NCBI GenBank assembly: GCA_038904515.1
Contig: JBCKKA010000002.1
Span: forward strand, 1,215 to 65,214
DNA from: Acidimicrobiia bacterium
GTDB lineage: Bacteria > Actinomycetota > Acidimicrobiia > IMCC26256 > PALSA-555
Direction of reading: 5' to 3'
DNA: 64,000 nt
The notes below the pieces were generated by a model, which had not been told where the DNA came from, made no database searches, and saw nothing but the letters and a program-made list of their open reading frames with translations. Each line of letters begins with the position of its first letter. Position 1 is the first letter of the stretch. The position numbers were made by a program, and so were the translations under genes. This document shows, in pieces, positions 921-60,987 of the stretch.

Positions 921-1910
921 GTGCGCGACACTCAGTCGGTCACTCAGTCGGTCACTCAGTCGGTCACTCAGTCGGTCACTCAGTCGGCTACTCAGCCGGT
1001 CACTCATTTGGCGTTGGTCGGGCCCACCGCGTCGGGCAAATCGGCGCTTGCATTCGAGATTGCCCGCACGCACGGCGACATCGAAATCGTTTCCATCGAC
1101 TCCATGCAGGTCTATCGGGGCATGGATATCGGTACGGCCAAGGCGTCGGTGGCCGAACGGGCCGAGATACCGCATCACCAGATCGATGTGGTCGACCCGA
1201 CCGACGATTACAGCGTGGCTCGGTTTCAGACCGAAGCGCGCGCCGCGGTGGCGGCAATCGCCGCGCGCGGTAACCGGGCGTTGTTGGTGGGGGGCACCGG
1301 TCTCTATGTACGCGCGGTGATCGACGACTACTGCTTTGCCGGTGAAGACCCCGTGGCCCGTGCCGAGCTCACCGAACGAGTGGCAACTCCCGACGGATTG
1401 CGGGCGGCCTACGCCGAGCTCGAAGCGCGCGACCCGGCCGCGGCGGGGCGGATCGAGCCCGATAATGTTCGCCGCATCGTGCGGGCCCTCGAAGTGATGG
1501 GTATCACTGGTCGGCCGTTTTCAGAATCGAGGCTGCCGCCGGGCGGGCCTACGGTGTTTCCCGTTGCTATTGCTGGAGTTTGGCTCACTCGGGCCGAACT
1601 GGCCGACCGTATCACCCAACGAATTGAGGTCATGCGCGAAGGTGGGTTAGTGGAAGAAGTCGATGCGCTCTTGAGTCAGGGCGAGTTGTCGCGTTCGGCC
1701 GCGCAAGCCATCGGCTACCGCGAAATCATCGATGTTCGCGCCGGTCGGCTCACTATCGACGAAGCTTTCACCGAAATGGTTCGCCGCACGCGGTCGTTCG
1801 CTCGCCGCCAGCGCATGTGGTTTCGCCGCGACCCTCGCATCACCTGGTGGGGCGCGCTCGATTCGCCGTCGGCAATTTTGCCCGGCCTGCTCGCGGCGTG
1901 GGCACAATGA
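921..1910 (+). CDS. miaA: tRNA dimethylallyltransferase MiaA (start uncertain: GTG 921 or in-frame TTG 1008)
   Basis: P-loop GPTASGKSALA, DSMQVYRGMDIGTAK and GGTGLY. The first 29 codons from GTG 921 consist almost entirely of the 12-bp tandem array. The stop overlaps the dapF ATG (ATGA). Confidence 0.85.
   Translation: MRDTQSVTQSVTQSVTQSVTQSATQPVTHLALVGPTASGKSALAFEIARTHGDIEIVSIDSMQVYRGMDIGTAKASVAERAEIPHHQIDVVDPTDDYSVARFQTEARAAVAAIAARGNRALLVGGTGLYVRAVIDDYCFAGEDPVARAELTERVATPDGLRAAYAELEARDPAAAGRIEPDNVRRIVRALEVMGITGRPFSESRLPPGGPTVFPVAIAGVWLTRAELADRITQRIEVMREGGLVEEVDALLSQGELSRSAAQAIGYREIIDVRAGRLTIDEAFTEMVRRTRSFARRQRMWFRRDPRITWWGALDSPSAILPGLLAAWAQ
929..1006. repeat. 12-bp tandem array, about 6.5 copies (CACTCAGTCGGT)
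   Basis: Head-to-tail copies at 929, 941, 953 and 965 are perfect. Copies at 977 (..GGC) and 989 (TACTCAGCCGGT) are variants, and a half copy runs 1001-1006. Confidence 0.95.
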
Positions 1911-2755
1911 AACTCAGCGTTAGTCGGTTGCACGCGACCCACAATGATTTTTTGGTCACGGTGGTGGCACCCGACGCCGCTTCGCCCGATGCCGCTACCG
2001 CGCGCGCGGTGTGCGATCGGGCCCACTCCGGCGGTGGGGCCGATGGTTTGATCGCGCTATTGCCGGGCACGGCCGGGGCCGATTGCACAATGGAGTTGCG
2101 TAACGCCGACGGTGAGTTAGCCGAAATGAGCGGCAACGGCATTCGCGGTTTGGCATGGGTGGCGGTGCGCGACCAACTCGCGCGCGGCGATCAACTTACC
2201 GTCGCCACTGCCGCGGGCACCCGCACCCTCACCCTCGACATCGATCCCGCTTCGGGATACCTGCGGTCAGCCACGGTCGACATGGGCGCGGCCACTTTTG
2301 TGCCTGCGGCGATTCCGGTCGATGCTCCGAGCGCCGACGACATCGCTTTTGATCTCGACGGCGTTGAGTATCGCGGCACCGCGTGCGGTATGGGCAATCC
2401 TCACTGGGTGATACTGGGGGCCGACCCCGCGTCAATAAATCTGGGCCGAGTAGGGCCGGTGTTGGAATGCGATAGTCGGTTTAAAAACCGCACCAATATT
2501 GAGTTTGCGAGGGTTATCGACCAATCCACAATCGTGATGCGGGCGTGGGAGCGAGGTGTGGGCGAAACCCAATCGTGCGGCACCGGCGCGTGCGCGGTGG
2601 CCGCGGTGGCGCACCGCGCCGGTTTGGTTGATAGCCGAGTGACGGTGCGAGTGCCCGGCGGGGAGTTAGTGGTCGAAGTGGGGGATACGATTTTACTCGA
2701 TGGTCCGGTGGTGCACCTCGGCGACGAAATTATCGACTTAAAGCGCGGCGGTTAA
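1907..2755 (+). CDS. dapF: diaminopimelate epimerase
   Basis: MKLSVSRLHATHNDFLV N-terminus, and both catalytic Cys contexts (MSGNGIRG... and QSCGTGACAVA). ATG 1907 overlaps the miaA stop. The longer track ORF from 1817 is treated as a spurious extension. Confidence 0.85.
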   Translation: MKLSVSRLHATHNDFLVTVVAPDAASPDAATARAVCDRAHSGGGADGLIALLPGTAGADCTMELRNADGELAEMSGNGIRGLAWVAVRDQLARGDQLTVATAAGTRTLTLDIDPASGYLRSATVDMGAATFVPAAIPVDAPSADDIAFDLDGVEYRGTACGMGNPHWVILGADPASINLGRVGPVLECDSRFKNRTNIEFARVIDQSTIVMRAWERGVGETQSCGTGACAVAAVAHRAGLVDSRVTVRVPGGELVVEVGDTILLDGPVVHLGDEIIDLKRGG

Positions 2756-2787
2756 GTGGATAGTAACGACAGTTACGCGCGGTCCTC

Positions 2788-4098
2788 ATGAGTCGCACCG
2801 GTCGTAATGCCCGACGGCTAACCGCAAGCGAAATCGATCTCGCGGTAACTCGCCAACTGGCGTTGGTGGTGGGCACCGCTACTAACGAACGCAACCGCAC
2901 CGAGTGCGAAACATCGCTAGCGGAGTTGGCGCAGTTGGTCGATACCGCGGGCGCCGATGTAATCGAGACGGTTATCCAACAACGCGAGCGTCCGCATCCG
3001 GCTACTTATGTAGGGTCGGGCAAGGCCGACGAGATTAAGGCGCTGGTGGCCGCGCTCGACATCGATGTGGTGATTTTCGACGACGAGTTAGCGCCCAATC
3101 AGCAGCGCAACCTCGAAAAAATTCTCGCCTGCGATGTAGTCGATCGCACCGCGCTGATCCTCGACATCTTTGCTCAGCACGCCACCACCCAAGAGGGCAT
3201 GGTGCAAGTGGAGTTGGCGCAGTTGCGTTACCGCATGCCTCGTTTGAGTGGTCGGGGAGTGCAGTTGAGTCAGCAGGGCGGCGGGATCGGCACTCGGGGT
3301 CCGGGGGAAACTCTTCACGAAATGGATCGGCGCCGTATTCGCACCCGCATGGCCCAACTCGAACGCGAACTCGACCGGTTGGCCCGCACCCGCGCCACCC
3401 AACGCAAAGCCCGCCACCGCAATCGCGTACCGGTTGTGGCCCTTGTGGGATATACCAATGCGGGCAAGTCGACCCTGCTCAACCGCATCACCGCGGCCGA
3501 GGTTTATGTGGAGAACCGGCTGTTCTCCACCCTCGACCCGACCACCCGTAAATTGGTGTTGCCCGGCGGGCAGGTGGTGTTGTGTTCCGACACGGTGGGA
3601 TTTTTGCGCCGGTTGCCCCATCAGTTGGTGGAGGCATTTCGCTCCACCCTCGAAGAAGTGGCCGTGGCCGACCTGCTGGTGCACGTGATCGACGCCAGTG
3701 CGCCCGATACCGAAGATCAGATCAGGGCGGTGCGCAGTGTGCTTAAAGAAATCGGTGCCGACGCGGTGCCCGAGCTTCGAGTGCTCAACAAAATCGACGC
3801 CGCGTCTCCCGACCAAGTGCTCTACCGGCAAACCGCCGACTCCCTCGGGGTCTCGGCCCGCACCGGCGAGGGAGTAGAGAAGCTGGTAGCGGCGATTAGT
3901 GAAAAATTGCGGTCGCTGGGTGACATTTCCGAATACCTCGTGCCCTACGAGCGGGGCGATGTGATGGCGAGCCTGCATCGCGATGGTGAAGTGCTCATCG
4001 AAGTGCATTCCGACGAAGGCACGCGGGTGCGGGTGCGACTCGATTCGGCCGACGCGTCGCGCTACACCGAGTTCGCCGCCGACGCGTCCGAGTCATGA
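2788..4098 (+). CDS. hflX: GTPase HflX
   Basis: HflX N-domain followed by G motifs GYTNAGKSTLLN (G1), DTVGF (G3) and NKID (G4). Sits after miaA/dapF as in other actinobacteria. Confidence 0.9.
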   Translation: MSRTGRNARRLTASEIDLAVTRQLALVVGTATNERNRTECETSLAELAQLVDTAGADVIETVIQQRERPHPATYVGSGKADEIKALVAALDIDVVIFDDELAPNQQRNLEKILACDVVDRTALILDIFAQHATTQEGMVQVELAQLRYRMPRLSGRGVQLSQQGGGIGTRGPGETLHEMDRRRIRTRMAQLERELDRLARTRATQRKARHRNRVPVVALVGYTNAGKSTLLNRITAAEVYVENRLFSTLDPTTRKLVLPGGQVVLCSDTVGFLRRLPHQLVEAFRSTLEEVAVADLLVHVIDASAPDTEDQIRAVRSVLKEIGADAVPELRVLNKIDAASPDQVLYRQTADSLGVSARTGEGVEKLVAAISEKLRSLGDISEYLVPYERGDVMASLHRDGEVLIEVHSDEGTRVRVRLDSADASRYTEFAADASES

Positions 4099-5252
4099 GC
4101 GAAATCGGCGGCTTCGTACCGCCGCCCTATCCGCAGGCCCGGCTCGGGGAGTTGCGCGCCCGCGGCGCGGCGGCGCCCGGCGGTTTGGTCGACGCGTCGG
4201 TGGGTACTCCGGTCGATCCCGTACCCGAAGTCGCGCGGCGAGCATTTATCGACGCGGTGGCCACTGCGGCGGGCTATCCCCCTTCGATCGGCTCACCCGA
4301 GTTGCGCGCCGCCGCCGCGAGCTGGATTGACCGCCGCTTCGGCGTGACGGTAAGTCCCGACGCGATTACCGCGTGTGTCGGCACCAAAGAAGCGGTGGCG
4401 AGTTTGCCCCGCTACCTCGCTTTGCGTACCCCGACTCGCGACACAGTTTTGTATCCCGAATTGGCCTATCCGACTTATGCGATGGGTGCCACTCTTGCGG
4501 GCCTACGCGCGATTCCGGTTCCGCTCGCCGCTAACGGAATAATCGATCTCGCTCGCGTTACTCCCGACGACGCGCACCGCGCGCTGGTGCTGTGGCTCAA
4601 CGATCCGTCGAATCCCACGGGGGTGTGCGCGAGTGCGGCCGAGCTGGCCGCGATGGTTGAGTGGGCTCAGGCCCGCGACATCGTGGTCGCGAGCGATGAG
4701 TGTTACGCCGAGTTCACTTTTAGCGCCGACGGTCAAGTGGCGCCGCCGGTTACCGCGCTGGCCGGCGACCACCGCGGCGTGCTGGCAGTGCACTCACTAT
4801 CGAAACGCTCCAATCTCGCGGGCCTGCGGGTGGGGTTTATGGCCGGCGACCCTCGGCTCATTAGTTATCTCGGCGAGGTGCGTCGGCACGCGGGGCTCAT
4901 GGTGGCGGCTCCGGTCCAGGCCGCGGCCACCGCGGCCCTCGGTGACGACGCCCATGTGGCCGAACAGCGGGAGCGTTACCAACGCCGCCGGTCCGCACTC
5001 ACGCCCGCGCTCGAAGATTTTGGTTTGGTGGCGGCGGGGGGCCCGTCGACTTTCTACCTCTGGCTCACCGAACCCGACGCGACCGCCGACGCGACCCCCG
5101 ACGGCTGGGCCATCGCCGACCGGTTGGCTCGCACCGGATTACTCGTGGCGCCGGGCGATCTCTACGGCGTCGCGGGCGCGCCATTCGTGCGGGTGGCCTT
5201 GAGTATCACCGATGAACAAATCGACCTCACCGTGGCCCGCTTGCGGTCATGA
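4095..5252 (+). CDS. dapC: class I/II aminotransferase, probable succinyldiaminopimelate aminotransferase
   Basis: LVDASVGTPVDPVP N-terminal motif, NDPSNPTG, and the SLSKRSNLAGLRVG PLP-lysine motif. Its 4-nt overlap with hflX and the downstream dapD support the DAP-pathway assignment. Confidence 0.7.
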   Translation: MSEIGGFVPPPYPQARLGELRARGAAAPGGLVDASVGTPVDPVPEVARRAFIDAVATAAGYPPSIGSPELRAAAASWIDRRFGVTVSPDAITACVGTKEAVASLPRYLALRTPTRDTVLYPELAYPTYAMGATLAGLRAIPVPLAANGIIDLARVTPDDAHRALVLWLNDPSNPTGVCASAAELAAMVEWAQARDIVVASDECYAEFTFSADGQVAPPVTALAGDHRGVLAVHSLSKRSNLAGLRVGFMAGDPRLISYLGEVRRHAGLMVAAPVQAAATAALGDDAHVAEQRERYQRRRSALTPALEDFGLVAAGGPSTFYLWLTEPDATADATPDGWAIADRLARTGLLVAPGDLYGVAGAPFVRVALSITDEQIDLTVARLRS

Positions 5253-5349
5253 TGGCGGTCATGATATTTGGATGGGTTTCTTCTGAAAATCCGTTACGCT
5301 CGAATCGGGCTCGCCGCGAACGGCGCGCACTCAACCGAAAGGCGCAACT

Positions 5350-6174
5350 GTGAGTGATTTAGAAAATCGGATCGGCGAGTTGTGGGCGGGACGCGAGACG
5401 CTCGCGGCTACCGATCCCGAGGCGCGCGCCACTATCCACGAAGCGATTAACGCCCTCGACTCCGGTGCGGTGCGGGTGGCCGAGTGGGCGGCCGACGGTT
5501 CGGTGGTGGTTAACCAGTGGTTGAAGCAGGCGATCCTGTTGTTGTTCCGCATCTCGGCGATGGAAACCATCGAGATGGGGCCGTTCGAATACGCCGACAA
5601 GATTCCGCTCAAGCACGACTACCAAAGCGGGGGCGTGCGGGCGGTGCCCGGCGCGTCGGCGCGGTGGGGGTCGTTCCTTGCTCCCGGCGTGGTGCTGATG
5701 CCGAGCTACGTCAACATCGGCGCCAATGTGGGGGCCGACACCATGGTCGACACTTGGGCCACGGTGGGTTCGTGCGCTCAGATCGGCGCGCGGGTGCACC
5801 TGTCGGGTGGGGTCGGAATCGGCGGCGTGCTCGAACCGCCCCAGGCCGCACCGGTAATGGTCGGCGACGACACCATGATCGGCTCTCGGTGCATTGTGGC
5901 CGACGGCGCGCGGGTGGGTACGGGAGTGGTGTTGGGTGCGGGCGCGATCCTCACCTCGTCGATTCCGGTGATCGACGCCGAGTCCGGCGAAGAAATCAGT
6001 CGGGGAGTCGTGCCCGACTGGTGTGTAGCGGTGTTCGCCACGCGCCCTCGCACTTTTGCCGGGGGCGAGTTTGGTTTGCCGTGCGTGCTGGTAGTGAAGC
6101 GACTGACTAAGGGCGAGCGCCACGAGAAATCACAACTCGAAGCCATACTGCGCGACCATTCCGTCGCCACCTAA
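5350..6174 (+). CDS. dapD: 2,3,4,5-tetrahydropyridine-2,6-dicarboxylate N-succinyltransferase
   Basis: 274 aa. The N-terminal helical domain (LDSGAVRVAE...WLKQAILLLFR) is followed by left-handed beta-helix hexapeptide repeats (GVVLMPSYVNIGANVG...). Colinear with E. coli-type DapD. Confidence 0.85.
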   Translation: MSDLENRIGELWAGRETLAATDPEARATIHEAINALDSGAVRVAEWAADGSVVVNQWLKQAILLLFRISAMETIEMGPFEYADKIPLKHDYQSGGVRAVPGASARWGSFLAPGVVLMPSYVNIGANVGADTMVDTWATVGSCAQIGARVHLSGGVGIGGVLEPPQAAPVMVGDDTMIGSRCIVADGARVGTGVVLGAGAILTSSIPVIDAESGEEISRGVVPDWCVAVFATRPRTFAGGEFGLPCVLVVKRLTKGERHEKSQLEAILRDHSVAT

Positions 6175-6285
6175 ATCGCGACAGCCGAAGTTTGCGCCCG
6201 CGGTTATCCGGCCACAGGCAGTTATTTACGGGGCAGCAGTTTGTGTCTGCGGTCACCCGGCCGCGGGCACCCGGCCGCGGTGAGG

Positions 6286-6915
6286 TTAGAACCGCCGCAG
6301 CAGAGTGACGACTTTGCCGTAGATGGCAATCTCGTTGGGCTCGAAAATCATGTCGTCCATAGTGGGGTTTTGGGGGCGCAACACGACTTTGTCCTGCTGA
6401 CGCACGAAGGTTTTTACCGTGGCTTCACCGCCAGGGATACCGGCCACCACGATGTCGCCCGATTCGGCGGTGGGTTGATGGCGTACGACCACATGGTCGC
6501 CGTCCATGATGCCGGCGTCGATCATCGACTCGCCCCGCACCCGCAGCATGAATAACTCGCCTGATCCGGTGAAGTCTTCGGGCATCGGGATGGTCTCCTC
6601 GATATTTTCTTCGGCGAGCACGCCGACGCCCGCGGCCACATCGCCCACGAGGGGAATGTGACGCACCGGCCGGCGTTCGACCGCCGCGCCCGAGGCCGAG
6701 TCGTAGATCAATTCCATCGCCCGAGGCTTGGCCGGGTCGCGCTTAAGAAAGCCTTTGTCTTGAAGGGCAACGAGGTGGGCGTGGACGGTGGAGCTCGAAG
6801 AAAGTCCGAGCGCCTCGCCGATCTCGCGCACGCTGGGCGGGTAGCCCCGAGTCCGGAATTCGGCATCGATGAATTCGAGGACCTGACGCTGGCGGTCGGT
6901 TAGTTCTTCACTCAT
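6286..6915 (-). CDS. lexA: SOS repressor LexA
   Basis: Winged-helix N-terminus (LTDRQRQVLEFI...GYPPSVREIGEAL), the cleavage-site region, and the Ser/Lys dyad contexts GESMIDAGI and TVKTF. SOS boxes lie upstream. Confidence 0.95.
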   Translation of the reverse strand: MSEELTDRQRQVLEFIDAEFRTRGYPPSVREIGEALGLSSSSTVHAHLVALQDKGFLKRDPAKPRAMELIYDSASGAAVERRPVRHIPLVGDVAAGVGVLAEENIEETIPMPEDFTGSGELFMLRVRGESMIDAGIMDGDHVVVRHQPTAESGDIVVAGIPGGEATVKTFVRQQDKVVLRPQNPTMDDMIFEPNEIAIYGKVVTLLRRF

Positions 6916-7003
6916 AGTTGAGGCTCCTAAATATCTATTTGGTATATTTATTGGGTTTTAGGGGCATAGGCCCGAGGTTTTTGCAGGTATAGACACCCTA
7001 ACA

Positions 7004-7078
7004 CGAATATATGTTCGGGGCGAACATTTGTTCTTGACAGGCGAACATTTGTTCTGTCATACTACGAACATACGTTCG
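7004..7078. promoter_or_regulatory. cluster of four LexA (SOS) boxes plus a sigma-70-like promoter facing the LysM gene
   Basis: GAAC-N4-GTTC type sites: 7004-7017 cGAATatatGTTCg (weaker), 7021-7034 cGAACatttGTTCt, 7042-7055 cGAACatttGTTCt and 7065-7078 cGAACatacGTTCg. TTGACA at 7034-7039 and CATACT at 7058-7063 (18-nt spacer) are overlapped by boxes 2-4. Confidence 0.85.
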
Positions 7079-7098
7079 GGCCCGAAAGGAAAAGATCC

Positions 7099-7503
7099 AT
7101 GACCACCATGACCACCAACCTCGGATTCATAACGACCGGTCCCGCGACCCGCCGTTTGAGACCGCGTTCGACCCCTCGGCGCGGTTCCCAGGTTTCTCAA
7201 GTCACTTATATTCGTCGCCGGGTGTTCGTGGCCCTGTTGGCATCAGTGCTTGTGGTCACGGTGGCCACGGCCGGTAGCGCGCTCGGAGATGCTCCCCTCG
7301 CATCCTCCGAGCGCACTCCGCCGGCCGGTCAAATTGCGACTTCGCCTGCGCACACGGCCGTAGTGCGGGCGGGGGATTCGCTCTGGTCGATCGTCTCGCG
7401 TCTGGCCCCCAATAAAGATCCTCGTCCACTAGTTGACGACCTTTCGCTGGCGCGCAACGGTGCCCCGTTGATCCCCGGCGAAACCATAAGTCTTGATCAA
7501 TAA
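7099..7503 (+). CDS. LysM-domain membrane-anchored protein, divergent from lexA
   Basis: N-terminal TM helix (VFVALLASVLVVTVATA). C-terminal LysM-like segment VVRAGDSLWSIVSRLAP...LIPGETISL. Same position as the SOS-induced LysM gene next to lexA in mycobacteria. Confidence 0.7.
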   Translation: MTTMTTNLGFITTGPATRRLRPRSTPRRGSQVSQVTYIRRRVFVALLASVLVVTVATAGSALGDAPLASSERTPPAGQIATSPAHTAVVRAGDSLWSIVSRLAPNKDPRPLVDDLSLARNGAPLIPGETISLDQ

Positions 7504-7535
7504 TCTCAATCGGTAATAATCCCAATCGGTAATAG
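7504..7535. repeat. 16-bp tandem duplication (TCYCAATCGGTAATAR) with a degenerate third copy
   Basis: TCTCAATCGGTAATAA at 7504-7519 and TCCCAATCGGTAATAG at 7520-7535, followed by TCCCTAATAACTCCC. Lies in the LysM-nrdR spacer. Confidence 0.8.
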
Positions 7536-7643
7536 TCCCTAATAACTCCCGAATTAACGGTCTAATTGACCGGTTCGACTCTCAAGGTATTTATGTTCAC
7601 TGATCCCATGATTTCTACCGTGCTTACGGGTACGGTGGTGCTT

Positions 7644-8105
7644 ATGAATTGCCCGTACTGCCAAGCCGACGACGACAAGGTTGTCGATTCGCGTCCCAGC
7701 GAAGATGGCGGCGCGGTGCGACGGCGACGCGAGTGTTTGGCCTGCGGTCGGCGTTACACCACCCATGAACGGCCGGTCGAACTTCCGCTGATGGTGGTCA
7801 AGCGCTCAGGATTACGCGAGCCGTTCGAGCGCTCCAAGATCACCGACGGCATCGAAAAGGCGCTGGCCGGAGCCGAAATTGCCCCCGCCGCCCTCGAAGC
7901 GCTCATCGATGGCATTGAAGAAGACGCCCGCGCCTCGGCCCCCGAAGTGTCGAGCGAACAGCTGGGTCAGGGAGTGCTGGAGCGATTGCGGGAGATCGAT
8001 GAAGTCTCCTACCTTCGTTTCGCCTCGGTCTACAAAGGTTTCAATGAAGCCGAAGATTTTGAGCGCGAAGCGGTTGAGCTCGCTAAAACTACCGACCCCG
8101 AATAA
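7644..8105 (+). CDS. nrdR: transcriptional repressor NrdR
   Basis: MNCPYCQADDDKVVDSRP...CLACGRRYTT zinc ribbon plus an ATP-cone. ATG 7644 was chosen because orthologues begin at the zinc ribbon. The track ORF from 7566 is longer. Confidence 0.9.
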   Translation: MNCPYCQADDDKVVDSRPSEDGGAVRRRRECLACGRRYTTHERPVELPLMVVKRSGLREPFERSKITDGIEKALAGAEIAPAALEALIDGIEEDARASAPEVSSEQLGQGVLERLREIDEVSYLRFASVYKGFNEAEDFEREAVELAKTTDPE

Positions 8106-8117
8106 TCCCTTCTAACC

Positions 8118-8138
8118 CCAGCCCATTTATGGGGCTGG
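8118..8138 (+). terminator. possible nrdR terminator hairpin
   Basis: CCAGCCC (8118-8124) pairs with GGGCTGG (8132-8138) across a 7-nt loop, 13 nt after the nrdR stop. No U-tract. Confidence 0.35.
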
Positions 8139-8146
8139 TGGGGGAC

Positions 8147-8225
8147 TTGACAAGAAGGTAGTTCCAGTGTTGTAATTTACCCTCTATGTAGGGTGGTCCG
8201 TACATGATATCACCATATATGGTAG
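8147..8225 (+). promoter_or_regulatory. nrdJ promoter with two tandem NrdR boxes
   Basis: TTGACA at 8147-8152, an 18-nt spacer, TGTAAT at 8171-8176. Two 16-bp palindrome-like boxes: 8179-8194 (ACCCTCTATGTAGGGT) and 8210-8225 (TCACCATATATGGTAG). Their centres are 31 bp apart, the usual NrdR-box geometry. Confidence 0.7.
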
Positions 8226-8276
8226 AAATATCCGCTACTATTTCATTCACTTATTCATACCGAAGGGACTTCACCA

Positions 8277-11060
8277 ATGACCATCGCACCGGAGCAAATC
8301 GGAATCGGAATTCGTCGCTACTTCACTCAGGCCGGGGAGCACCCTTACGACGCGATTGAATGGGAACACCGCGACGCGCGTATTCAAAATTACAAAGACG
8401 GCACCGACGCGTTCTTTCAGCCCGACTGCGAATTCCCGTTGGACTGGTCGCAAAACGCCACCAACATCGTGGCGCAAAAATATTTCCGCGGTACGCCCAA
8501 CACTTCCGAGCGCGAAACTTCGTTGCGCCAAGTGATCGATCGCGTGGCCGACACCATTACCGCGTGGGGAACGCGTGACGGTTACTTCGTTGACGATCAA
8601 GAAGGGGCAACTTTTCGCAACGAACTCAAAGCCATTCTCGTTACTCAACGCGCCGCGTTCAACTCTCCGGTGTGGTTCAACATCGGCGTGGCCGGCGTGC
8701 CGCAACAAGCGAGCGCGTGTTTCATTCTTGCGGTCGAAGACACTATGGACGGAATTCTTAACTGGTACCGCGAAGAAGGAACTATTTTTAAGGGTGGTTC
8801 GGGTTCGGGAATTAATCTTTCGGGAATTCGTTCTTCGGTAGAAAATCTTGCCGGCGGCGGAACTGCTTCGGGACCGGTAAGTTTTATGCGCGGCGCCGAC
8901 TCGTCGGCCGGAACTATTAAGAGCGGCGGTAAAACTCGCCGGGCCGCCAAGATGGTTGTGCTCAACATCGATCACCCCGACATCGAAGAATTCATTTGGT
9001 GCAAGGCGCGCGAAGAGCGCAAAGCGCGCGCGTTGCGCGACGCCGGTTTTGATATGGACCTCGACGGCTCCGACTCGTTTTCGGTGCAGTACCAAAATGC
9101 CAACAACTCAGTGCGACTCACCGATGATTTCATGGCCGCAGTCGAAGCCGATCGCGACTGGGATCTGCGAGCGGTAAAAACCGGTGAGCCAGTAAAGACT
9201 CTGCGAGCGCGCGACCTCATGTTACAGATTGCCAAGTCGGCGTGGGAATGCGCCGACCCGGGTCTGCAGTTCGACACTACGGTTAACCGTTGGCACACTG
9301 CGCCCAACACCGCGCGCATCAATGCCTCGAACCCGTGTTCCGAATACATGCACATCGACAACTCGGCTTGCAACTTGGCCAGCATCAACTTGCTCAAGTA
9401 CCTCGACGGCGACGACAACTTCGATGTAACCGGTTTTGAACACACCATCGAAGTGATGTTCACCGCCCAAGAAATTTTGGTTGGTAACGCCGACTACCCA
9501 ACACCGATGATCGGCGAGAACAGCCGCAAGTTTCGCCAACTCGGTTTGGGTTACGCCAACTTGGGCGCGTTGCTCATGGCGCAAGGTGTCGCGTACGACT
9601 CAGTCGCCGGACGGGCATGGGCGGGCGCGATCACCGCGCTTATGACCGGTCACGCGTACGCCACCAGCGCGCGCACCGCGGGTCGCATGGGTCCGTTCGC
9701 CGGTTTTGCCGAAAACGCGGAGCCGATGGTTGAGGTATTGCGCATGCACCGCGCCGAAGTGGCCAAGATCGACGAAGAGTTGGTGCCGCTCGAGATTCTC
9801 GGTGCCGCGCAGCGTTCGTGGGACGAAGCGGTCGAACTCGGTGAGATTCACGGAGTGCGTAACTCCCAAGCCACCGTGCTCGCGCCGACCGGAACTATCG
9901 GTCTCATGATGGACTGCGACACCACCGGTATCGAGCCCGACCTCGCGCTCACTAAGGCCAAGAAATTGGTCGGCGGCGGCACGATGTTCATTGTCAACCA
10001 AACCATCCCGCGCTCGTTGCGCAAACTGGGATACTCGCCCGCCGAAGTGGAAGGAATTATTTCCTACATCGACGAGCAAAAGACCATTGTGGGGGCGCCG
10101 GCATTTAAAGAAGACCACCTGCCGATTTTCGCCTGTTCAATGGGCGACAATGTCATTCACTACATGGGTCACGTTAATATGATGGCGGCCGCGCAGCCGT
10201 TCTTGTCGGGCGCGATTTCTAAGACGGTCAATATGCCCGAAGAAGCCACCATCGAAGATGTCGAGAGTCTCTACTTTGAGTCTTGGAAGTTGGGTCTCAA
10301 AGCGGTGGCGATCTACCGCGACAACTGCAAGGTGGGTCAGCCCCTCTCCACGCAGAAAAAAGCGGGTGCATCCGACGATGACAGTACCGACCCGCTTACT
10401 TCGCAAGTAGAGCGGATTATCGAGACCGTCATCGTGCAAGAGCCCGTGCGGCAGAAGTTGCCCCGAATTCGCCAGTCGAAGACTTTTTCCTTCCGAGTGG
10501 CCGACTGTCACGGCTACGCCACGGTGGGTGAATTCGAAGACGGCCGACCCGGCGAAGTGTTTCTCAAAGTGGCTAAGCAAGGATCCACTCTCTCAGGGAT
10601 TATGGACGCCTTTGCCATTGCCATGAGCTTGGGTCTGCAGTACGGGGTTCCGTTGCGGGCTTTCATCGAGAAGTTCACCAGCATGCGCTTCGAGCCCGCC
10701 GGTATTACCGACGATCCCGAGATCCGTTTTGCTACCAGCTTGGTCGACTACATCTTCCGGCGTTTGGCGGTCGAATACATCTCGCCCGAAGATCGGGCCG
10801 ATATGGGCATATTTACCGTCAACGAACGGATGCAACCGACCCTTCCGGGAGTCGAAGAAGCCGCCACGCCTACTCGAACCAGCACCAACCCGTTGCCCCT
10901 TGAGGATCAGGCTCCGTCGGCCGCCCTGAACGCGCCAACGATTAAACCCAAGGCGCGTCAGTCGGAAATGGTGATCTGTTCAGTCTGTGGCGACATTATG
11001 CAGCGGGCCGGTTCGTGCCACGCCTGCCCGTCGTGCGGTGCTACTAGCGGCTGCTCCTGA
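8277..11060 (+). CDS. nrdJ: adenosylcobalamin-dependent (class II) ribonucleotide reductase
   Basis: 927 aa. Contains ATP-cone-less N-terminus, RNR barrel motifs including the active-site SNPCSEY, and a C-terminal Cys-rich tail CSVCGDIMQRAGSCHACPSCG. Lies directly downstream of nrdR and the NrdR boxes. Confidence 0.9.
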   Translation: MTIAPEQIGIGIRRYFTQAGEHPYDAIEWEHRDARIQNYKDGTDAFFQPDCEFPLDWSQNATNIVAQKYFRGTPNTSERETSLRQVIDRVADTITAWGTRDGYFVDDQEGATFRNELKAILVTQRAAFNSPVWFNIGVAGVPQQASACFILAVEDTMDGILNWYREEGTIFKGGSGSGINLSGIRSSVENLAGGGTASGPVSFMRGADSSAGTIKSGGKTRRAAKMVVLNIDHPDIEEFIWCKAREERKARALRDAGFDMDLDGSDSFSVQYQNANNSVRLTDDFMAAVEADRDWDLRAVKTGEPVKTLRARDLMLQIAKSAWECADPGLQFDTTVNRWHTAPNTARINASNPCSEYMHIDNSACNLASINLLKYLDGDDNFDVTGFEHTIEVMFTAQEILVGNADYPTPMIGENSRKFRQLGLGYANLGALLMAQGVAYDSVAGRAWAGAITALMTGHAYATSARTAGRMGPFAGFAENAEPMVEVLRMHRAEVAKIDEELVPLEILGAAQRSWDEAVELGEIHGVRNSQATVLAPTGTIGLMMDCDTTGIEPDLALTKAKKLVGGGTMFIVNQTIPRSLRKLGYSPAEVEGIISYIDEQKTIVGAPAFKEDHLPIFACSMGDNVIHYMGHVNMMAAAQPFLSGAISKTVNMPEEATIEDVESLYFESWKLGLKAVAIYRDNCKVGQPLSTQKKAGASDDDSTDPLTSQVERIIETVIVQEPVRQKLPRIRQSKTFSFRVADCHGYATVGEFEDGRPGEVFLKVAKQGSTLSGIMDAFAIAMSLGLQYGVPLRAFIEKFTSMRFEPAGITDDPEIRFATSLVDYIFRRLAVEYISPEDRADMGIFTVNERMQPTLPGVEEAATPTRTSTNPLPLEDQAPSAALNAPTIKPKARQSEMVICSVCGDIMQRAGSCHACPSCGATSGCS

Positions 11061-11086
11061 TGTCGAATTGCGTCCTCGCTCCTGGT

Positions 11087-11103
11087 GACGAGATCGTCTC
11101 GTC
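11087..11103 (+). terminator. weak hairpin after nrdJ
   Basis: GACGAGA tcg TCTCGTC, a 7-bp stem, 27 nt after the nrdJ stop. No U-tract. Confidence 0.3.
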
Positions 11104-11133
11104 GCCCGCCGCGTAGCAGTCGGTCGCCATCTC

Positions 11134-12177: not shown

Positions 12178-12294
12178 ACGCGTCAGAGGGCTGCTACCCC
12201 GTCCACCCGGCGTTCGAGAGCCCGCGATAAAGACGTCCTGATCCTCGCGGCCGAGTCCGCGGGGCCCGCGCTCACCATCTCTTAGAATCCGCGC

Positions 12295-12816
12295 GTGCCC
12301 TTACGCTTATCCGAAACCCAGTACACGGTCGTGCGGGCGGCGCTTGATCGCACGGTTCCTGGCGACGACCTGACTCCGGGCGCCGGTGTGGCCGGTGGTG
12401 CCGATTATGTCGACGGATTGCTGGCCGCGTTCAATTTCGACCCTCCGCGCGTTTGGGCGGGGGGACCAACTTCGGGTCGCCACGGCGCCGCCGCCACTTT
12501 CGATCAATGGCTCGAACTCGGCCCGTGGGAAGAACGAGCGTGGCGAGCGCGCATCGAAGAGTGGTGGATAATTTACGAAACCGGTCTCGCCACGCTGGGC
12601 GAAGATTTCTTAGAACTCAGTGAGGCCGAGCAATCCGCGCGCCTTTCCACTACCAGTAAAGAATTTCGGGAGCTGCTATTTACTCACGCGTGCGAAAGTT
12701 TGTACGGCGATCCGGTTTACGGCGGCAATCGCGACGGGCAGGCGTGGCAAGCAATTGATTTTCGCGGCGATGTGCAACCTCGGGGGTACACCGACGAAGA
12801 GGTGCGCGCACCGTGA
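12295..12816 (+). CDS. gluconate 2-dehydrogenase subunit-3-like small subunit of a GMC oxidoreductase
   Basis: 173 aa. C-terminal YGDPVYGGNRDGQAWQAIDF motif typical of this small-subunit family. GTGA overlap with the downstream GMC flavoprotein gene. Confidence 0.6.
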   Translation: MPLRLSETQYTVVRAALDRTVPGDDLTPGAGVAGGADYVDGLLAAFNFDPPRVWAGGPTSGRHGAAATFDQWLELGPWEERAWRARIEEWWIIYETGLATLGEDFLELSEAEQSARLSTTSKEFRELLFTHACESLYGDPVYGGNRDGQAWQAIDFRGDVQPRGYTDEEVRAP

Positions 12817-14555: not shown

Positions 14556-14658
14556 GCCCGCAGGCCAAGGGCAGTTGTCATTTGGCGGAGAAGGGGCAAA
14601 AAGTGGCACGATAACGACTTCGTTTGAAACTATCCGTCCCGATTAGGAGATTTCCATC

Positions 14659-16012: not shown

Positions 16013-16015
16013 GAG

Positions 16016-17418: not shown

Positions 17419-17479
17419 GACGCCAAGAGCAGGCCAAGAAGACGTCAAGAGCAGGCCAAGAAGACGCCAAGAGCAGGCG
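17419..17479. repeat. 22-bp tandem array, 2.8 copies (GACGYCAAGAGCAGGCCAAGAA)
   Basis: Copies at 17419-17440 and 17441-17462 (one C/T difference), plus a partial copy at 17463-17479. It ends 17 nt before the whiB ATG, just before the SD GAAAGGA. Confidence 0.95.
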
Positions 17480-20297: not shown

Positions 20298-21700
20298 GCC
20301 TGCCACCCGAATCAACCGTGGCTAGTTTTGATGCTCCGCCTATTCCCGAGGCGCTGCTCAGTCCGTTACTCGACACCGCCGCCGATTCGCTCAGCAGTTT
20401 TGATGCCGAGTTGCCCGCGGTGTTGCGGCCGTTAGCTGGGTTTGATCGTCGCGGATTGTCTCACGGTCCCGCTCGGCAACAATTGCAGCGAGCTATTGAA
20501 ATCGATCCGGCGTTTCGTGATTTTGTTTCTGACGCATTTATCGGCCGCGAAGCGGTCGCACGCGTAATTGATGCGTGGGATCTTGATGCGGCGGCGGAGA
20601 TTATCGACGACGCCATGGCCCGGTCCGATCTCGCGCTTTTGGCCTCGGCGCTTTACGCGGCGCGCCCCAACGGTTGGAAATTCGGTTTAGGAATGATTGT
20701 CGCTCGGGCCGGACAAGTTCGTTCCGACGAAGAACGAGCCGACGATACCAAGGCGCATCAAACTGAGGTTGTCGCGTTAGCCGAGGCCCGACGGCGAGCC
20801 GAAGGTGCTCGGGTAAGCGCGGAAAATAAAATTAAGAGTCTTGAAGATGAACTAAAAGAAGAACGACGAGCACGCCGAGAACGAGAGTTGGCGGCCGATC
20901 GGTCGGCCGCGGAAGCATCCAAAAAAATTAAAGTGGCCGAGGCGACCGAAGCCGCGGCGGCATTAGCAATAAAGAAAGCCGAAAGTTTGACTGAACGCGA
21001 AGCCGACCGAGCCCGTAACGCCGAGTTGGCGTTGCGCGATCTGCGCCGCGTCACCGGTGCCGCCGCCACTCCACCAACCGCCACTCTGCCAACCGCGGGG
21101 TTGTCGTCCGAAGATGCTCATGTTCTGGCCGAAGCGGCCAATACTGCTCGCCGGTTAGCCACTCGACTTGAAGGTCTAACCACGGCGACCCAAGTTGAGC
21201 TACGCGCCACGGCCGCACTCGCGGCCGAAGAAAGTGGCGATGTCGTCGATCGCCGCCCGCAACCGGTTTGTCCACCGGGGCTCACTAGCGATTCGGCGGC
21301 CGCGCTCGACGCCATGTTGCGCACTCGGGGCGTATGCCTGGTGGTCGACGGCTACAACATTTCTATGAACGCGTGGTTCGATGCCTCGATCGCCGATCAA
21401 CGCACCCGACTCTTGGTTGCCCTCGAACGACTACACCAGCGCTTGCGCTGTGATGTGGTGGTGGTGTTCGACGGGTCGGATGCGGCGGCAACGATTCCGT
21501 CCAAACGCTCAGGAGTGCGAGTCTTGTTTTCTACCGGTGGCGAAAAGGCCGATCCCGTTATTGTGCGAGAAGTCGGCAAAATGGGTGCCAATATTCCGAT
21601 AATCGTGGCCTCGTCCGACCGTTGGGTGGCGGAGCACTCCGAAGACCTCGGTGCGATTGCCGTCCCCGCCGCTTCCCTCGTAGAGGTAATCCGCCACTAG
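20294..21700 (+). CDS. NYN/YacP-like nuclease-domain protein with a central coiled coil
   Basis: C-terminal CLVVDGYNISMNAW...VVVVFDG...IIVASSDRWV (NYN/PIN-like). The middle is rich in A/E/R heptads. The start is inferred at GTG 20294; the track gives 20243. Confidence 0.65.
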   Translation: MSLPPESTVASFDAPPIPEALLSPLLDTAADSLSSFDAELPAVLRPLAGFDRRGLSHGPARQQLQRAIEIDPAFRDFVSDAFIGREAVARVIDAWDLDAAAEIIDDAMARSDLALLASALYAARPNGWKFGLGMIVARAGQVRSDEERADDTKAHQTEVVALAEARRRAEGARVSAENKIKSLEDELKEERRARRERELAADRSAAEASKKIKVAEATEAAAALAIKKAESLTEREADRARNAELALRDLRRVTGAAATPPTATLPTAGLSSEDAHVLAEAANTARRLATRLEGLTTATQVELRATAALAAEESGDVVDRRPQPVCPPGLTSDSAAALDAMLRTRGVCLVVDGYNISMNAWFDASIADQRTRLLVALERLHQRLRCDVVVVFDGSDAAATIPSKRSGVRVLFSTGGEKADPVIVREVGKMGANIPIIVASSDRWVAEHSEDLGAIAVPAASLVEVIRH

Positions 21701-30516: not shown

Positions 30517-30540
30517 GATTTCGGGATTTCTGGATTTCTG
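30517..30540. repeat. 8-bp tandem array, 3 copies (GATTTCKG)
   Basis: GATTTCGG GATTTCTG GATTTCTG, 37-60 nt upstream of the minus-strand ACAD start at 30480. Confidence 0.8.
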
Positions 30541-30571
30541 GTTATCGTTACAATATCAAGGCCAGCGGGCA

Positions 30572-30600
30572 TTGACTAACGTTCGTGTCAGGTTTTAAAT
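30572..30600 (+). promoter_or_regulatory. sigma-70-like promoter candidate for the 30729 ACAD gene
   Basis: TTGACT at 30572-30577, a 17-nt spacer, TTAAAT at 30595-30600. This would place the 14-bp array in the transcribed leader. Confidence 0.45.
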
Positions 30601-30615
30601 CGACTCCATAAGCTT

Positions 30616-30713
30616 GACCCAGCAACCTTGACCCAGCAACCTTGACCCAGCAACCTTGACCCAGCAACCTCGACCCAGCAACCTCGACCCAGCAACCTCG
30701 ACCCAGCAACCTT
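30616..30713. repeat. 14-bp tandem array, 7 copies (GACCCAGCAACCTY)
   Basis: Copies start at 30616, 30630 and 30644 (..CTT), at 30658, 30672 and 30686 (..CTC), and at 30700 (..CTT). The array ends at the SD GAGAGGA, 15 nt before ATG 30729. Confidence 0.97.
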
Positions 30714-30728
30714 GAGAGGAACCACTCC

Positions 30729-43680: not shown

Positions 43681-43778
43681 CAGTAAATCCAGCAGTAAAT
43701 CCAGCCAGTAAAGCCAGCCAGTGAAGCCAGCAGTGAAGCCAGCAGTGAAGCCAGTAGTGAAGCCAGTAGCAAAGAAGG
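43681..43778. repeat. 12/13-bp tandem array, about 8 copies (CAGTGAAGCCAG and variants)
   Basis: CAGTAAATCCAG x2 (the second followed by an extra C), CAGTAAAGCCAG (+C), CAGTGAAGCCAG x3, TAGTGAAGCCAG, then the degenerate TAGCAAAGAAGG that provides the SD for the P450 ATG at 43790. Confidence 0.95.
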
Positions 43779-51751: not shown

Positions 51752-52422
51752 TGACCGCCAACCCCGACGATTCGCAGTGGTCGTTCCCCGCACCCACTCG
51801 GGGAGAAGATTTAGTCGGCGTGGGCGCCGACTTGGCGCCGGCTACTTTGCTTAACGCGTATCGGCACGGACTGTTTCCTATGCGGGTTGCCAAAAACGGC
51901 CCATTGGGCTGGTGGTCACCCGACCCGCGTGCGGTGTTACCGCTTACCGATTTTCACCGAGGTCGTTCTTTACGCCGAGCCGAGCGGCGGTTTGGGCTAA
52001 GTGTCGACAAAGCGTTTGAAGAAGTGATGCGTAGATGTGCCGACCCTCGTCGCCCTCACGGCTGGATCGACGAAGAATTCATTACTGCTTATGTACGGTT
52101 ACACGAGATGGGGTTTGCTCACAGCGTCGAGGTGTGGTCTACCGCAGAGGCGCAACCTCACCAACTAGTGGGTGGTATTTATGGAGTCGCGATTGGGGGT
52201 CTTTTTGCGGGCGAATCGATGTTTTCTCTCGCTAGTGGTGCCTCGAAAGTTGCTTTGGCAGCACTCGTAGACCGTTTACGCACTGGTGGAGGAAAACTCT
52301 TTGATGTCCAGTGGCTAACTCCGCACCTAGCATCTTTAGGAGTCATCGAGATAAGCAGATCAGAATATTCGACCGCACTAAAAGCCGCGGTAAAACGCCC
52401 ACAGCTTCGACTAGCTGACTAG
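51751..52422 (+). CDS. aat: leucyl/phenylalanyl-tRNA--protein transferase
   Basis: LLNAYRHGLFPM, WWSPDPR and GESMFS motifs. The ATG overlaps the MFS stop (TGATG). Confidence 0.85.
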   Translation: MTANPDDSQWSFPAPTRGEDLVGVGADLAPATLLNAYRHGLFPMRVAKNGPLGWWSPDPRAVLPLTDFHRGRSLRRAERRFGLSVDKAFEEVMRRCADPRRPHGWIDEEFITAYVRLHEMGFAHSVEVWSTAEAQPHQLVGGIYGVAIGGLFAGESMFSLASGASKVALAALVDRLRTGGGKLFDVQWLTPHLASLGVIEISRSEYSTALKAAVKRPQLRLAD

Positions 52423-53538
52423 TTCCTCTTGGTTGACCGCATCAAACAGCGCGTATTCAACTTCGGTGTCGGGCGCATCTTCATAATCAATTACACCAAT
52501 TTCGGTGAAACGATCGCGCAGCCAACCGTCGCCGGCATCGAGTAGACCGAGTTTTTTACAATTGGGAACAATCTTCGAAAATAAGGCAGCCTGAAATGGG
52601 TTAGTACCAGTTGATTGAAAAGCCATAAACATTTCAGTAACTGTTTTTCGGCTGATTCCGCATTTCTCCCAAACGGTATGCATCATCAACCGGTCGCGCA
52701 TGCGCAGAGCCGACTCAAAAGCAAACTCTTGGCGTTCTTTTATCTCGTTGTTGTCAAGACCCTGATAAAACTCTTGTAGAGATAGCACGCCAAAAGCGAC
52801 ATGGCGGGCTTCATCGCTCATGACGTAGCGCAGCAGTGACTTCAATAACGGTTCAGTCGTAATTGCGTGCATCATTCCAAATGCGGCCAGCGCTAGTCCT
52901 TCGATCATGATCTGCATACCCATATAGGTCATGTCCCAGCGGCTATCGAGCAAGATATCGTCAATTAGTAGTTGCAAGTTGGCGTTGACGGGATAGTGAC
53001 CATCAAGTTTGGTATCAAGATAGCGAGCAAACACCTCGACATGACGAGCTTCGTCGACCACCTGAGTAGCGGCGTAATACTTTGCGTCGATCCACGGAGT
53101 GGTATTAACGATTTTGGCAGTACAGAGCAGTGCGCCTTGCTCGCCGTGAAGAAATTGGCTCATGCGCCAATTGAAAGCTTCGGTAGCAAAGACTTCCCAT
53201 TCTTTATCACTCCATAATTTGAGTGGTGAATTAGGCATCGCGGTAAAACTGTCTCGCATACCTTGGAATGCCACTTGCATTTCGCGGGCAACTTTTTCTA
53301 TATCTACTTCAATCGACCAGTCGAGGTCGGTCGATACATTCCACTGCGAAGTCTTAGCGCGTTCGTAGAGCTTTGATAGTCCTGGTCGGGTGCGCTCGTA
53401 GTCCCAAGTGAAAACGGTGTCGCCGCCTATGGGAGTGGAGTATTCGTCAGTGCCAAAATCTATAGCGTCATCAGCCAAAATCGAGGCAATGCTGTTGACA
53501 TCAGCTCGACCAAGTGCTTCGAATTTATCCATTTTCAA
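52411..53538 (-). CDS. ferritin-like di-iron carboxylate protein (AurF / R2-like oxidase superfamily)
   Basis: Two E...DEARH sets (FLHGEQGA...VDEARHVEVF and IEGLA...SDEARHVAFG). 375 aa. GC is noticeably low, about 42-53% in two 60-nt hand counts. Confidence 0.6.
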   Translation of the reverse strand: MKMDKFEALGRADVNSIASILADDAIDFGTDEYSTPIGGDTVFTWDYERTRPGLSKLYERAKTSQWNVSTDLDWSIEVDIEKVAREMQVAFQGMRDSFTAMPNSPLKLWSDKEWEVFATEAFNWRMSQFLHGEQGALLCTAKIVNTTPWIDAKYYAATQVVDEARHVEVFARYLDTKLDGHYPVNANLQLLIDDILLDSRWDMTYMGMQIMIEGLALAAFGMMHAITTEPLLKSLLRYVMSDEARHVAFGVLSLQEFYQGLDNNEIKERQEFAFESALRMRDRLMMHTVWEKCGISRKTVTEMFMAFQSTGTNPFQAALFSKIVPNCKKLGLLDAGDGWLRDRFTEIGVIDYEDAPDTEVEYALFDAVNQEELVS

Positions 53539-59719: not shown

Positions 59720-60930
59720 CGACTTCAGTAGCCGAGCGTCCGGAACGCGTCGATCGCGTTGTCGTCGGTCGTGCCGCGCTGGCTTACTTGGCAATCGCTC
59801 TGGTATTAACCGCGCTAACGGTATTGGCTAATTCATATTCGGGTGGCGATGCCGGTTTAAAAAGCATTATCGACCGTTTAGGGCTGGCGGGAGGCTGGTG
59901 CCGTTTCGATTGCGGATGGTATGTCGGTATTGCCGAGCAAGGTTATTTTTATAACCTCGGCTATCAATCGAGTGTGGCGTTTTTCCCTGGTTATCCCATG
60001 GCGGCTCGTGGGCTCGGAAATATTATTGGCGATATTCCGCTAGCGGTAATCATCACGAGTTGGCTATCGGGATTTGGTGCTGCTATCGCTTACGCGGCTT
60101 GGTGCACGGGGCGACTTGACCGACGGGTAGCAACATGGTCGGTAGCGGTTTTATTGCTCTATCCCTACGGGTTTTATTTGTTCGGTGCGGGTTACGGCGA
60201 CGGTTTATTTCTCGCATTAGCGGTTAGCGCATTTTTATTACTCGAGCGGGATCACTTATTCCTCGCGGCGACTGCGGGCGCTTTAGCCGGCGCCACTCGT
60301 TCTATCGGAATTGTAATTTTCGTAAGCATGGTTTTAGTGATAATCGACCGACGGGGTGGTATGCCCATGCGTGCGCCCGATTCGGGTTGGTTGGCCAAAC
60401 TTGGCCTGCCCGCGTCGGTGTCGTTGAAAGTCTTACGCGGGCGTGATGCGATTTTGTTTATTGCTTTGCTCGGTCCTATTGGCTGGTCATTATTTCTAAA
60501 TAATAGATTTGGTGACGGGTTTGCTTATGTAACCGTGCAAGAAGCATGGAAGCAAAAAGAGGGTCCCCGGACTTGGCTGAAGTTTGATTTATTCCGCGAG
60601 ATTGCCAATGGGCAGGATATTTATTACGTAGGCGGCCGGCTTATTCCGGCTGTGCTGCTAGTCGTGCTGTTGGCCCTACTGCCGCTGGTAGCCAAAAAAT
60701 TAGGACCCAGTTACGCGGCGTACAGCGCCGCGGCGGTTCTGTTGCCTGCATTGGGTAGTAAAGATTTTCATAGCATGGGTCGTTACGCTATCGCCGCGTT
60801 TCCGATATTCGCCGTCGTCGGCATCGAGCTGTCAGCCCGCCCCCGCTGGGGCCGATTGGTTTTAGTGCTGGGCGCGATATTCTTATGTGCCGGAGCCTTC
60901 GGATTTGCGCGAGGTTGGTACTTGGCGTGA
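59716..60930 (+). CDS. polytopic membrane protein, GT-C / PIG-V-like mannosyltransferase-type
   Basis: 404 aa, at least 9 TM helices. First-loop motif RFDCGWYVGIAEQGY...VAFFPGYPM, as in PIG-V-like GT-C proteins. 4-nt overlap with the deacetylase gene. Confidence 0.55.
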   Translation: MTTSVAERPERVDRVVVGRAALAYLAIALVLTALTVLANSYSGGDAGLKSIIDRLGLAGGWCRFDCGWYVGIAEQGYFYNLGYQSSVAFFPGYPMAARGLGNIIGDIPLAVIITSWLSGFGAAIAYAAWCTGRLDRRVATWSVAVLLLYPYGFYLFGAGYGDGLFLALAVSAFLLLERDHLFLAATAGALAGATRSIGIVIFVSMVLVIIDRRGGMPMRAPDSGWLAKLGLPASVSLKVLRGRDAILFIALLGPIGWSLFLNNRFGDGFAYVTVQEAWKQKEGPRTWLKFDLFREIANGQDIYYVGGRLIPAVLLVVLLALLPLVAKKLGPSYAAYSAAAVLLPALGSKDFHSMGRYAIAAFPIFAVVGIELSARPRWGRLVLVLGAIFLCAGAFGFARGWYLA

Positions 60931-60959
60931 CCGGATACTGTTACTAATTGTCTGACATC

Positions 60960-60987
60960 AAATAATGGGAGCGAAATAACGGGAGCG
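60960..60987. repeat. 14-bp tandem duplication carrying the Shine-Dalgarno (AAATAAYGGGAGCG x2)
   Basis: AAATAATGGGAGCG at 60960-60973 and AAATAACGGGAGCG at 60974-60987. The ATG is at 60992. Confidence 0.85.

Follow-up and report, generated by a model that had tools for sequence, protein, structure and literature searches.

Strain-variable short tandem-repeat arrays in a 64-kb genome window of an uncultured Acidimicrobiia bacterium

Why would a compact bacterial genome carry many short tandem arrays, unrelated to one another, in the immediate neighborhood of its genes? The question is raised by a 64,000-nt stretch of DNA (contig JBCKKA010000002.1, positions 1,215 to 65,214), analyzed here in full and referred to as the window, which comes from an uncultured Acidimicrobiia bacterium and is 95% coding. 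A first-pass annotation, made from the letters alone, had described eight such arrays (arrays 1 to 8, Table 1) and read them as recent slippage products parked at start codons. Our results indicate that these arrays belong to an already known class of elements, and that strain-variable arrays are unusually frequent in this species. We consider it likely that they are ordinary variable-number tandem repeats (VNTRs), generated by slippage and surviving only where a change in length is tolerated.

Tandem Repeats Finder (TRF) was run on the window, with 50 dinucleotide-preserving shuffles providing the chance level. The window contains eight arrays with a score of at least 50, compared with 0.16 in the shuffles, and four with a score of at least 100, compared with none. 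All eight arrays of the first-pass annotation were recovered at, or a few bases from, the coordinates it had assigned, and both TRF and direct reading reveal head-to-tail copies without spacers. The unit sequences are mutually unrelated, as had been proposed, sharing no k-mer beyond chance; a common motif, CGGTCA or CATGA, was suggestive, not significant, and was rejected. The block-wise arrangement of unit variants is likewise genuine, while the counts given earlier needed revision: array 5 reads CTT x4, CTC x3 and a partial CTT, and array 6 reads TAAAT x2, TAAAG and TGAAG x4. A search against Rfam returned no match anywhere in the window.

Copy number was then compared with relatives. Group A consists of contigs of the same species, recovered through protein searches in metagenomes from several JGI, ENA and Logan samples; they share 96.8–97.5% DNA identity with the window and cover its positions 1–18490 and 20653–62345. 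Group B is a syntenic sister species at 88–93% amino-acid (aa) and about 74% nucleotide identity; its contig ends within the P450 gene, and the comparison of array 6 therefore covers Group A only. The closest GTDB species representatives are Acidimicrobiia metagenome-assembled genomes (MAGs) with only about 61% aa identity in the electron transfer flavoprotein (ETF), and such distant Acidimicrobiia (at most 61% aa, about 1.05 Mb) were employed solely as a background set. Used as a metagenome query, the gene at 52411–53538 led to the sister lineage at 84% aa, not to conspecifics.

Whole-unit differences between the window and Group A, with conserved flanks, were detected in six of the eight arrays, which bears out the first-pass reading of recent slippage-type VNTRs. 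Array 1 has 6.5 copies in the window and 5.5, with different unit variants, in the conspecific contig L189; array 3 has 2.8 versus 1.7 (L168, one unit fewer), array 4 three versus four, and array 8 two versus three (L168, L169 and L189). The largest differences concern array 5, with 7.4 copies versus 2.4 in five Group A contigs (one CTT and one CTC unit), and array 6, with eight copies versus a two-unit proto-repeat, CAGTAAAGCCAG/CAGTAAAGAAGG, in seven. Array 2 is invariant in length across eight conspecific contigs except for one 1-nt change, the spacer holding array 7 has the same length in six, and the array at 6249–6280 shows no length change in conspecifics.

Six further loci bring the polymorphic total to 12. 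The 24-bp repeat in miaB has 2.5 copies in L189 (61 nt versus 37 nt in the window, with the same flanks), and the sister species lacks this segment; the 13-bp repeat upstream of lexA has three copies in nine conspecific contigs versus two in the window; and the coding repeat at 21063 is one unit shorter in L079–L081. Conspecific contigs also carry a 27-bp tandem duplication at 17263, within a Na+/Ca2+ exchanger gene, and a 14-bp duplication in the start region of hflX (L189 7628–7654, corresponding to window 2775–2790). The last locus, a 12-bp array located upstream of a gene beyond the limits of the window, varies within Group A itself. As a side observation, the hflX duplication creates in the conspecifics a mini-ORF of five codons (MSRT-stop), the stop of which overlaps the real ATG.

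An indel census of Group A against the window, covering about 56 kb at 97% identity, attributed 7 of 29 indels to whole-unit changes in tandem arrays. The longer allele is found in the window at five loci and in the relatives at six, so the window strain is not systematically expanded; symmetric gains of this kind are the expectation of a neutral stepwise process. Only the two largest steps of the window (+5 and +6 units) stand out.

These steps could suggest that the arrays exist while the high window copy numbers (7.4 and 8) are errors of short-read or single-cell assembly. Indeed, the high-copy alleles of arrays 5 and 6 occur only in the window contig, and all 5–7 independent conspecific assemblies have two copies. 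Yet the arrays span at most 103 nt, below common read and k-mer lengths, and ordered internal variants, such as four CTT units followed by three CTC units or the TAAAT, TAAAG and TGAAG blocks, are not made by collapse or expansion errors. Assemblers moreover tend to collapse repeats rather than expand them (also PMC12817950), and arrays 1, 2, 7 and 8 were seen again in independent assemblies. An assembly artefact is thus very unlikely.

The sister species indicates where the arrays come from. Arrays 1, 3 and 5 are absent from Group B at the orthologous sites, although the adjoining sequence is alignable, and array 5 was found in none of ten sister contigs. The site of array 1 holds there a single homologous 12-mer (encoding PTPV), the array itself deriving from a counterpart of that 12-mer; that of array 3 is non-repetitive and lies downstream of a conserved upstream block; and that of array 4 is diverged and not repeated. 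The relative L088 has the array 7 unit in single copy. In Group A, the two units of array 5 are bounded by CTTGA, and the window has amplified each of them separately, while the second half of the array 6 proto-repeat is the Shine-Dalgarno (SD) sequence. The arrays thus arose from local sequence and not from a mobile or interspersed element, their units being unrelated and one- or two-copy proto-repeats occupying the same sites in relatives. Proto-repeats followed by amplification are the footprint that slippage between short direct repeats would be expected to leave.

No array with a TRF score of at least 50 occurs in 64.5 kb of Group B, which has a similar G+C content; the window has eight, and the roughly 79 kb of Group A contain 12 (Poisson p = 3e-4). 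When comparable arrays were defined by a unit of 7–30 bp, at least 2.5 copies and at least 90% matches, the distant Acidimicrobiia contained roughly 0.9 per 64 kb versus five here (p = 0.0025). Their look-alikes are isolated cases, located just before an SD and ATG (L042, L065 and L057) or between convergent genes (L008). The genome-specific propensity for arrays that had been suggested is therefore supported by an excess over both the sister and the distant relatives, and since the sister has no array in 64.5 kb, it is specific to this species.

Table 1. Tandem arrays and associated features of the window (positions in the window; SD, Shine-Dalgarno sequence)
Feature	Position	Strand	Basis or remark
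24-bp in-frame repeat, miaB 3' end	843..879	+	about 1.5 copies in window
Array 1: 12 bp x6.5, in frame in miaA open reading frame	929..1006	+	TRF score 135
Array 8: 12 bp x1.9, spanning dapC stop (TGA 5250-5252)	5243..5265	+	TRF
14 bp x2.3, convergent dapD/lexA spacer, 3' ends only	6249..6280	.	TRF score 57, gene map
13 bp x2, 15 nt upstream of lexA start	6931..6956	-	conspecific comparison
9 bp x2.3, in frame, start codon and N-terminus (MTTMTT) of gene 7099-7503	7097..7117	+	TRF, sequence
Array 2: 16 bp x2.6, from stop of gene 7099-7503 to 104 nt before nrdR ATG	7499..7539	+	TRF score 68
Array 3: 22 bp x2.8, sense strand T-free, 16 nt before whiB ATG (17496)	17419..17479	+	TRF score 113
15 bp x2.3, in-frame coding repeat, NYN/YacP-domain gene	21063..21096	+	conspecific comparison
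Array 4: 8 bp x3.1, 36 nt upstream of minus-strand acyl-CoA dehydrogenase start (30480)	30517..30541	-	TRF
Conserved block (TTGACT; TGAC..GTCA) upstream of array 5	30543..30594	+	interspecies conservation
Array 5: 14 bp x7.4, 13 nt before ATG 30729, runs into SD GAGAGGAAC	30613..30715	+	TRF score 185
Array 6: 12/13 bp x8, P450 SD in last unit, ATG 43790	43681..43778	+	TRF score 112
Array 7: 14 bp x2 (60960-60987), SD of SDR gene duplicated; then 9 bp x2.1 in frame over start (MSE/ISE)	60960..61008	+	TRF

To place the arrays relative to genes, the conspecific gene calls were projected onto the window and corrected using Pfam and homology. By Pfam, the gene order comprises miaB-miaA-dapF-hflX-dapC-dapD, lexA, nrdR-nrdJ, whiB, a fused ETF, several acyl-CoA dehydrogenases, a P450 and an SDR. 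The 47 spacers of this map add up to 3,617 nt, 5.7% of the window; collapsing the arrays reduces this to 3,195 nt (5.0%). Arrays scoring at least 40 are strongly enriched in spacers (8 of 16, p = 3e-7). Within the spacers, however, their distance to starts is as expected by chance, contrary to the notion of arrays parked at start codons: a start codon is no more than 25 nt away for five of the nine intergenic arrays, versus 35% of collapsed intergenic positions (p = 0.17), and spacers bounded only by 3' ends hold one of the nine, with 13.5% expected. Fully 86.5% of the collapsed intergenic positions are upstream of some start codon. The apparent parking arises because nearly all intergenic DNA lies upstream of starts, and is due mainly to a genome that is 95% coding, combined with selection.

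Individual cases point the same way. Array 2, which had been placed next to the nrdR start, begins on the stop codon of the preceding gene, and the true nrdR ATG, assigned from the Pfam zinc ribbon and alignment, is at 7644; from the end of array 8, on the other side of the dapC stop, it is 84 nt to the next start. Coding sequence and 3' ends, reported earlier as free of arrays, do contain them: in-frame arrays are located at 5073, 7097, 21063, 24711, 25936 and 63569, and the one at 6249–6280 lies between convergent genes. Coding arrays have units in multiples of 3, those of the clear cases measuring 9, 12, 15, 18 or 24 bp and all being in frame, and non-coding units measure 8, 11, 13, 14, 16 or 22 bp, plus 12. 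Overall, the positions fit duplication occurring genome-wide and filtered by selection, not targeting to starts.

We hypothesize that local segments of 8–27 bp that end in a few identical bases at both sides become duplicated, and that whole units would then be gained or lost via slipped-strand mispairing or unequal exchange, with a rate of duplication, or a persistence of its products, clearly above that of the sister species. Selection would purge arrays that disrupt a reading frame, a promoter or operator, or the spacing from SD to ATG. The expected survivors would lie in the leader just upstream of the SD, in the bases just past stop codons, and at in-frame sites in protein ends or linkers.

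Such arrays closely resemble the VNTR loci used in multiple-locus VNTR analysis (MLVA) of bacteria, of which the mycobacterial MIRU, ETR and QUB loci and the short VNTRs of M. leprae are examples. Both have a locus-specific head-to-tail unit, a mostly intergenic or in-frame position, whole-unit changes between strains and conserved flanks. They differ in that the units here are short (8–27 bp) and the host is an uncultured member of the Acidimicrobiia with a compact genome. Here the loci are also dense, with about 12 polymorphic ones per about 70 kb compared and none in the sister.

Could the arrays nevertheless influence the genes that follow them? Arrays 3 and 5 sit between upstream blocks conserved across species and the SD and are probably transcribed leader insertions; array 6 would likewise be transcribed as a 5' leader. 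The block at 30543–30594, conserved in the window, five conspecific and ten sister contigs, probably represents an operator or promoter. Upstream of array 5, a TTGACT-N17-TTAAAT promoter picked by hand did not satisfy the rules of the consensus promoter scan and was retained only as a conserved block; the scan called nothing in the arrays or in this block, and no TANNNT -10 element is present in the array units. Folding predicts unstructured RNA for arrays 5 and 6 (centroid without pairs, z +1.0 and +1.8), nothing remarkable for array 3, and some structure for array 1 (z -2.4). Mini-ORFs and in-frame GTGs within arrays 5 and 6 were dismissed, having no SD sequences.

An adaptive interpretation would treat the arrays as tuning knobs or contingency loci, in which copy number, at whiB, the acyl-CoA dehydrogenase genes and the P450 gene, sets the length of the 5' untranslated region (UTR), mRNA stability or ribosome loading, yielding heritable and reversible expression variants. 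It can draw on the copy-number differences between strains in arrays 3, 4, 5 and 6, on the additional 70–74 nt of A/C-rich, U-poor and predicted unstructured RNA that arrays 5 and 6 put right before the SD, and on two precedents. In the pks island of E. coli, the clbR 5' UTR contains a VNTR with an 8-bp unit in 2–20 copies, depending on the isolate, which lies in a divergent intergenic region between the start codon and a mapped transcription start; expression is about 2-fold higher with 20 than with 5 repeats (PMC7364221). Its position matches the one inferred for arrays 3, 5 and 6, the difference being that many unrelated loci are involved here instead of one and that they are known from sequence alone. 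In M. tuberculosis, promoter tandem repeats at dop, lpdA and cysG vary in copy number between strains and have been proposed to be phase-variable (PMC12817950). Here the likeness consists in membership of the Actinomycetota, in arrays 12–29 bp upstream of starts and in strain-variable copy number. The M. tuberculosis units, however, measure 54–58 bp, and each is the whole promoter of a leaderless gene (PMC12817950), whereas those of the window, at 8–22 bp, are too short for a complete promoter, contain no TANNNT, gave an empty scan and lie upstream of a clear SD.

Several observations argue against tuning. The arrays are no nearer to starts than chance, and stop-codon flanks, convergent spacers and coding sequence have been hit by the same process. 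Alleles are fixed in many independent conspecific assemblies, with one of the 12 loci varying within that group, and the sister species manages without arrays. The 8–22 bp units are placed neither between -35 and -10 nor inside frames, so that no on/off switch is evident. We regard adaptive tuning as unlikely; a regulatory role is possible by analogy with the precedents, and any effect on expression would be incidental and modest.

Contingency loci of Haemophilus and Neisseria are built from 1–7 nt units that lie within reading frames or separate -35 from -10, and mediate high-frequency on/off switching. Slippage-driven length change near gene starts is the feature in common. Neither their placement nor their switching is seen in the window, where the units of 8–22 bp lie upstream of the SD or past stops and the coding arrays are all in frame.

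A further alternative holds that the arrays are iteron- or operator-like binding sites for a DNA- or RNA-binding regulator. Regularly spaced direct repeats in divergent promoter regions do resemble response-regulator or iteron sites, and TTGACC occurs within the array 5 unit. The units are, however, unrelated to one another, anything between 2 and 8 copies occurs in a single species, and recognisable SOS and NrdR boxes are located elsewhere. Iterons and operators would have a unit conserved among related species, while the orthologous sister sites are without arrays even though neighboring real regulatory blocks are conserved. Binding-site arrays are accordingly highly improbable. NrdR boxes as an identity for array 2, and SOS boxes for the array next to lexA, were both rejected, the actual boxes lying elsewhere. 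Four actinobacterial SOS-box-like sites (CGAACATTTGTTC x2, CGAACATACGTTCG and CGAATATATGTTCG) are present at 6995–7080, in the divergent spacer between lexA and gene 7099, and two NrdR-box-like palindromes (ACCCTCTATGTAGGGT and ACCATATATGGT), about 30 nt apart, lie upstream of nrdJ at 8175–8225.

Array 1 is in frame in the miaA open reading frame (ORF) 921–1910, counted from GTG 921, and encodes (TQSV)n ahead of the P-loop; in each of the three lineages, this GTG follows the miaB stop by 3 nt. Read most simply, array 1 would be a variable (TQSV)n N-terminal extension of MiaA, and a downstream TTG may serve as an alternative start. MiaA with any of six plausible starts was not found in a collection of 15 billion proteins in which neighbors from the same NCBI contig are present; the annotation pipeline may have dropped or flagged miaA owing to the repeat. 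The look-up of P0365 added no allele and differed only in the start call.

How firmly, then, can the arrays be regarded as slippage-generated VNTRs retained where length change is tolerated? Some points weigh against this interpretation. With nine intergenic arrays, the start-proximity test is low-powered. Eleven of the 12 loci are fixed across 2–9 independent conspecific assemblies, so mutation is either not extremely fast or is hidden by consensus assemblies. The +5 and +6 expansions both occur in the window genome, a single assembly, and no cause was found for the array excess in this species. A combined scenario, in which a lineage-specific elevation of tandem duplication (e.g., through an altered replication or repair function) seeds VNTRs and the unstructured A/C-rich spacers before the ribosome-binding sites of whiB, two acyl-CoA dehydrogenases and the P450 are retained as heritable dials of translation or mRNA stability, seems to us quite unlikely. 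If true, it would provide a free-living, non-pathogen case of repeat-based expression tuning.

The comparison with conspecifics also revealed other strain differences. At window position 46011, in the gene at 45869–46358, 1,754 bp are missing relative to the conspecifics, inside the gene of a 747-aa molybdopterin oxidoreductase; this loss truncates the gene, which is probably a pseudogene in the window strain. Conversely, the Na+/Ca2+ exchanger gene upstream of whiB (16016–17284) is intact in the window, and conspecifics have a deletion of about 990 bp (868 + 123 bp) in it (window 16140–17290 versus L168 13040–13227). An in-frame TAA at 14082–14084 splits a GMC oxidoreductase, 580 aa long in conspecifics, into ORFs 12813–14084 and 14133–14555; as no indel is present there, it represents a nonsense substitution or a sequencing error. 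Conspecifics carry a 259-bp insertion (L079 16425–16683), absent from the window, at position 37152 within spacer 37132–37156; its terminal inverted repeats of about 17–20 bp (GGTGGCTCAGTTTGAGG) make it similar to a miniature inverted-repeat transposable element. A second insertion of 249 bp, with a small ORF and unrelated to the first, is located at window position 54931.

The G+C content is 60–67% at positions 1–8000 and 62000–64000 and 50–57% between them, and collinearity with Group A stops at 62345. The last gene (62472–64000) encodes a nucleotidyltransferase fused to a CDP-alcohol phosphatidyltransferase and had no match among the fetched loci. A single protein of 619 aa (24408–26267) combines the beta and alpha subunits of the ETF, a fusion conserved in many Acidimicrobiia MAGs.

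Together, our results indicate that short VNTRs, which have been studied mainly as typing markers of pathogens, also contribute heavily to the indels that separate strains of an uncultured environmental actinobacterium, whole-unit repeat changes making up about a quarter to a third of the indels between 97%-identical genomes. The arrays could be used as strain markers in metagenomes. They are also sites at which gene callers mis-set starts, as illustrated by miaA, the P450 and the upstream acyl-CoA dehydrogenase, all of which were called differently. Should the leader arrays affect expression, they would offer a natural allelic series for the effects of 5'-UTR length. Closely related species can differ sharply in their propensity for arrays, and why these build up in the present species but not in its sister is the point of greater interest.

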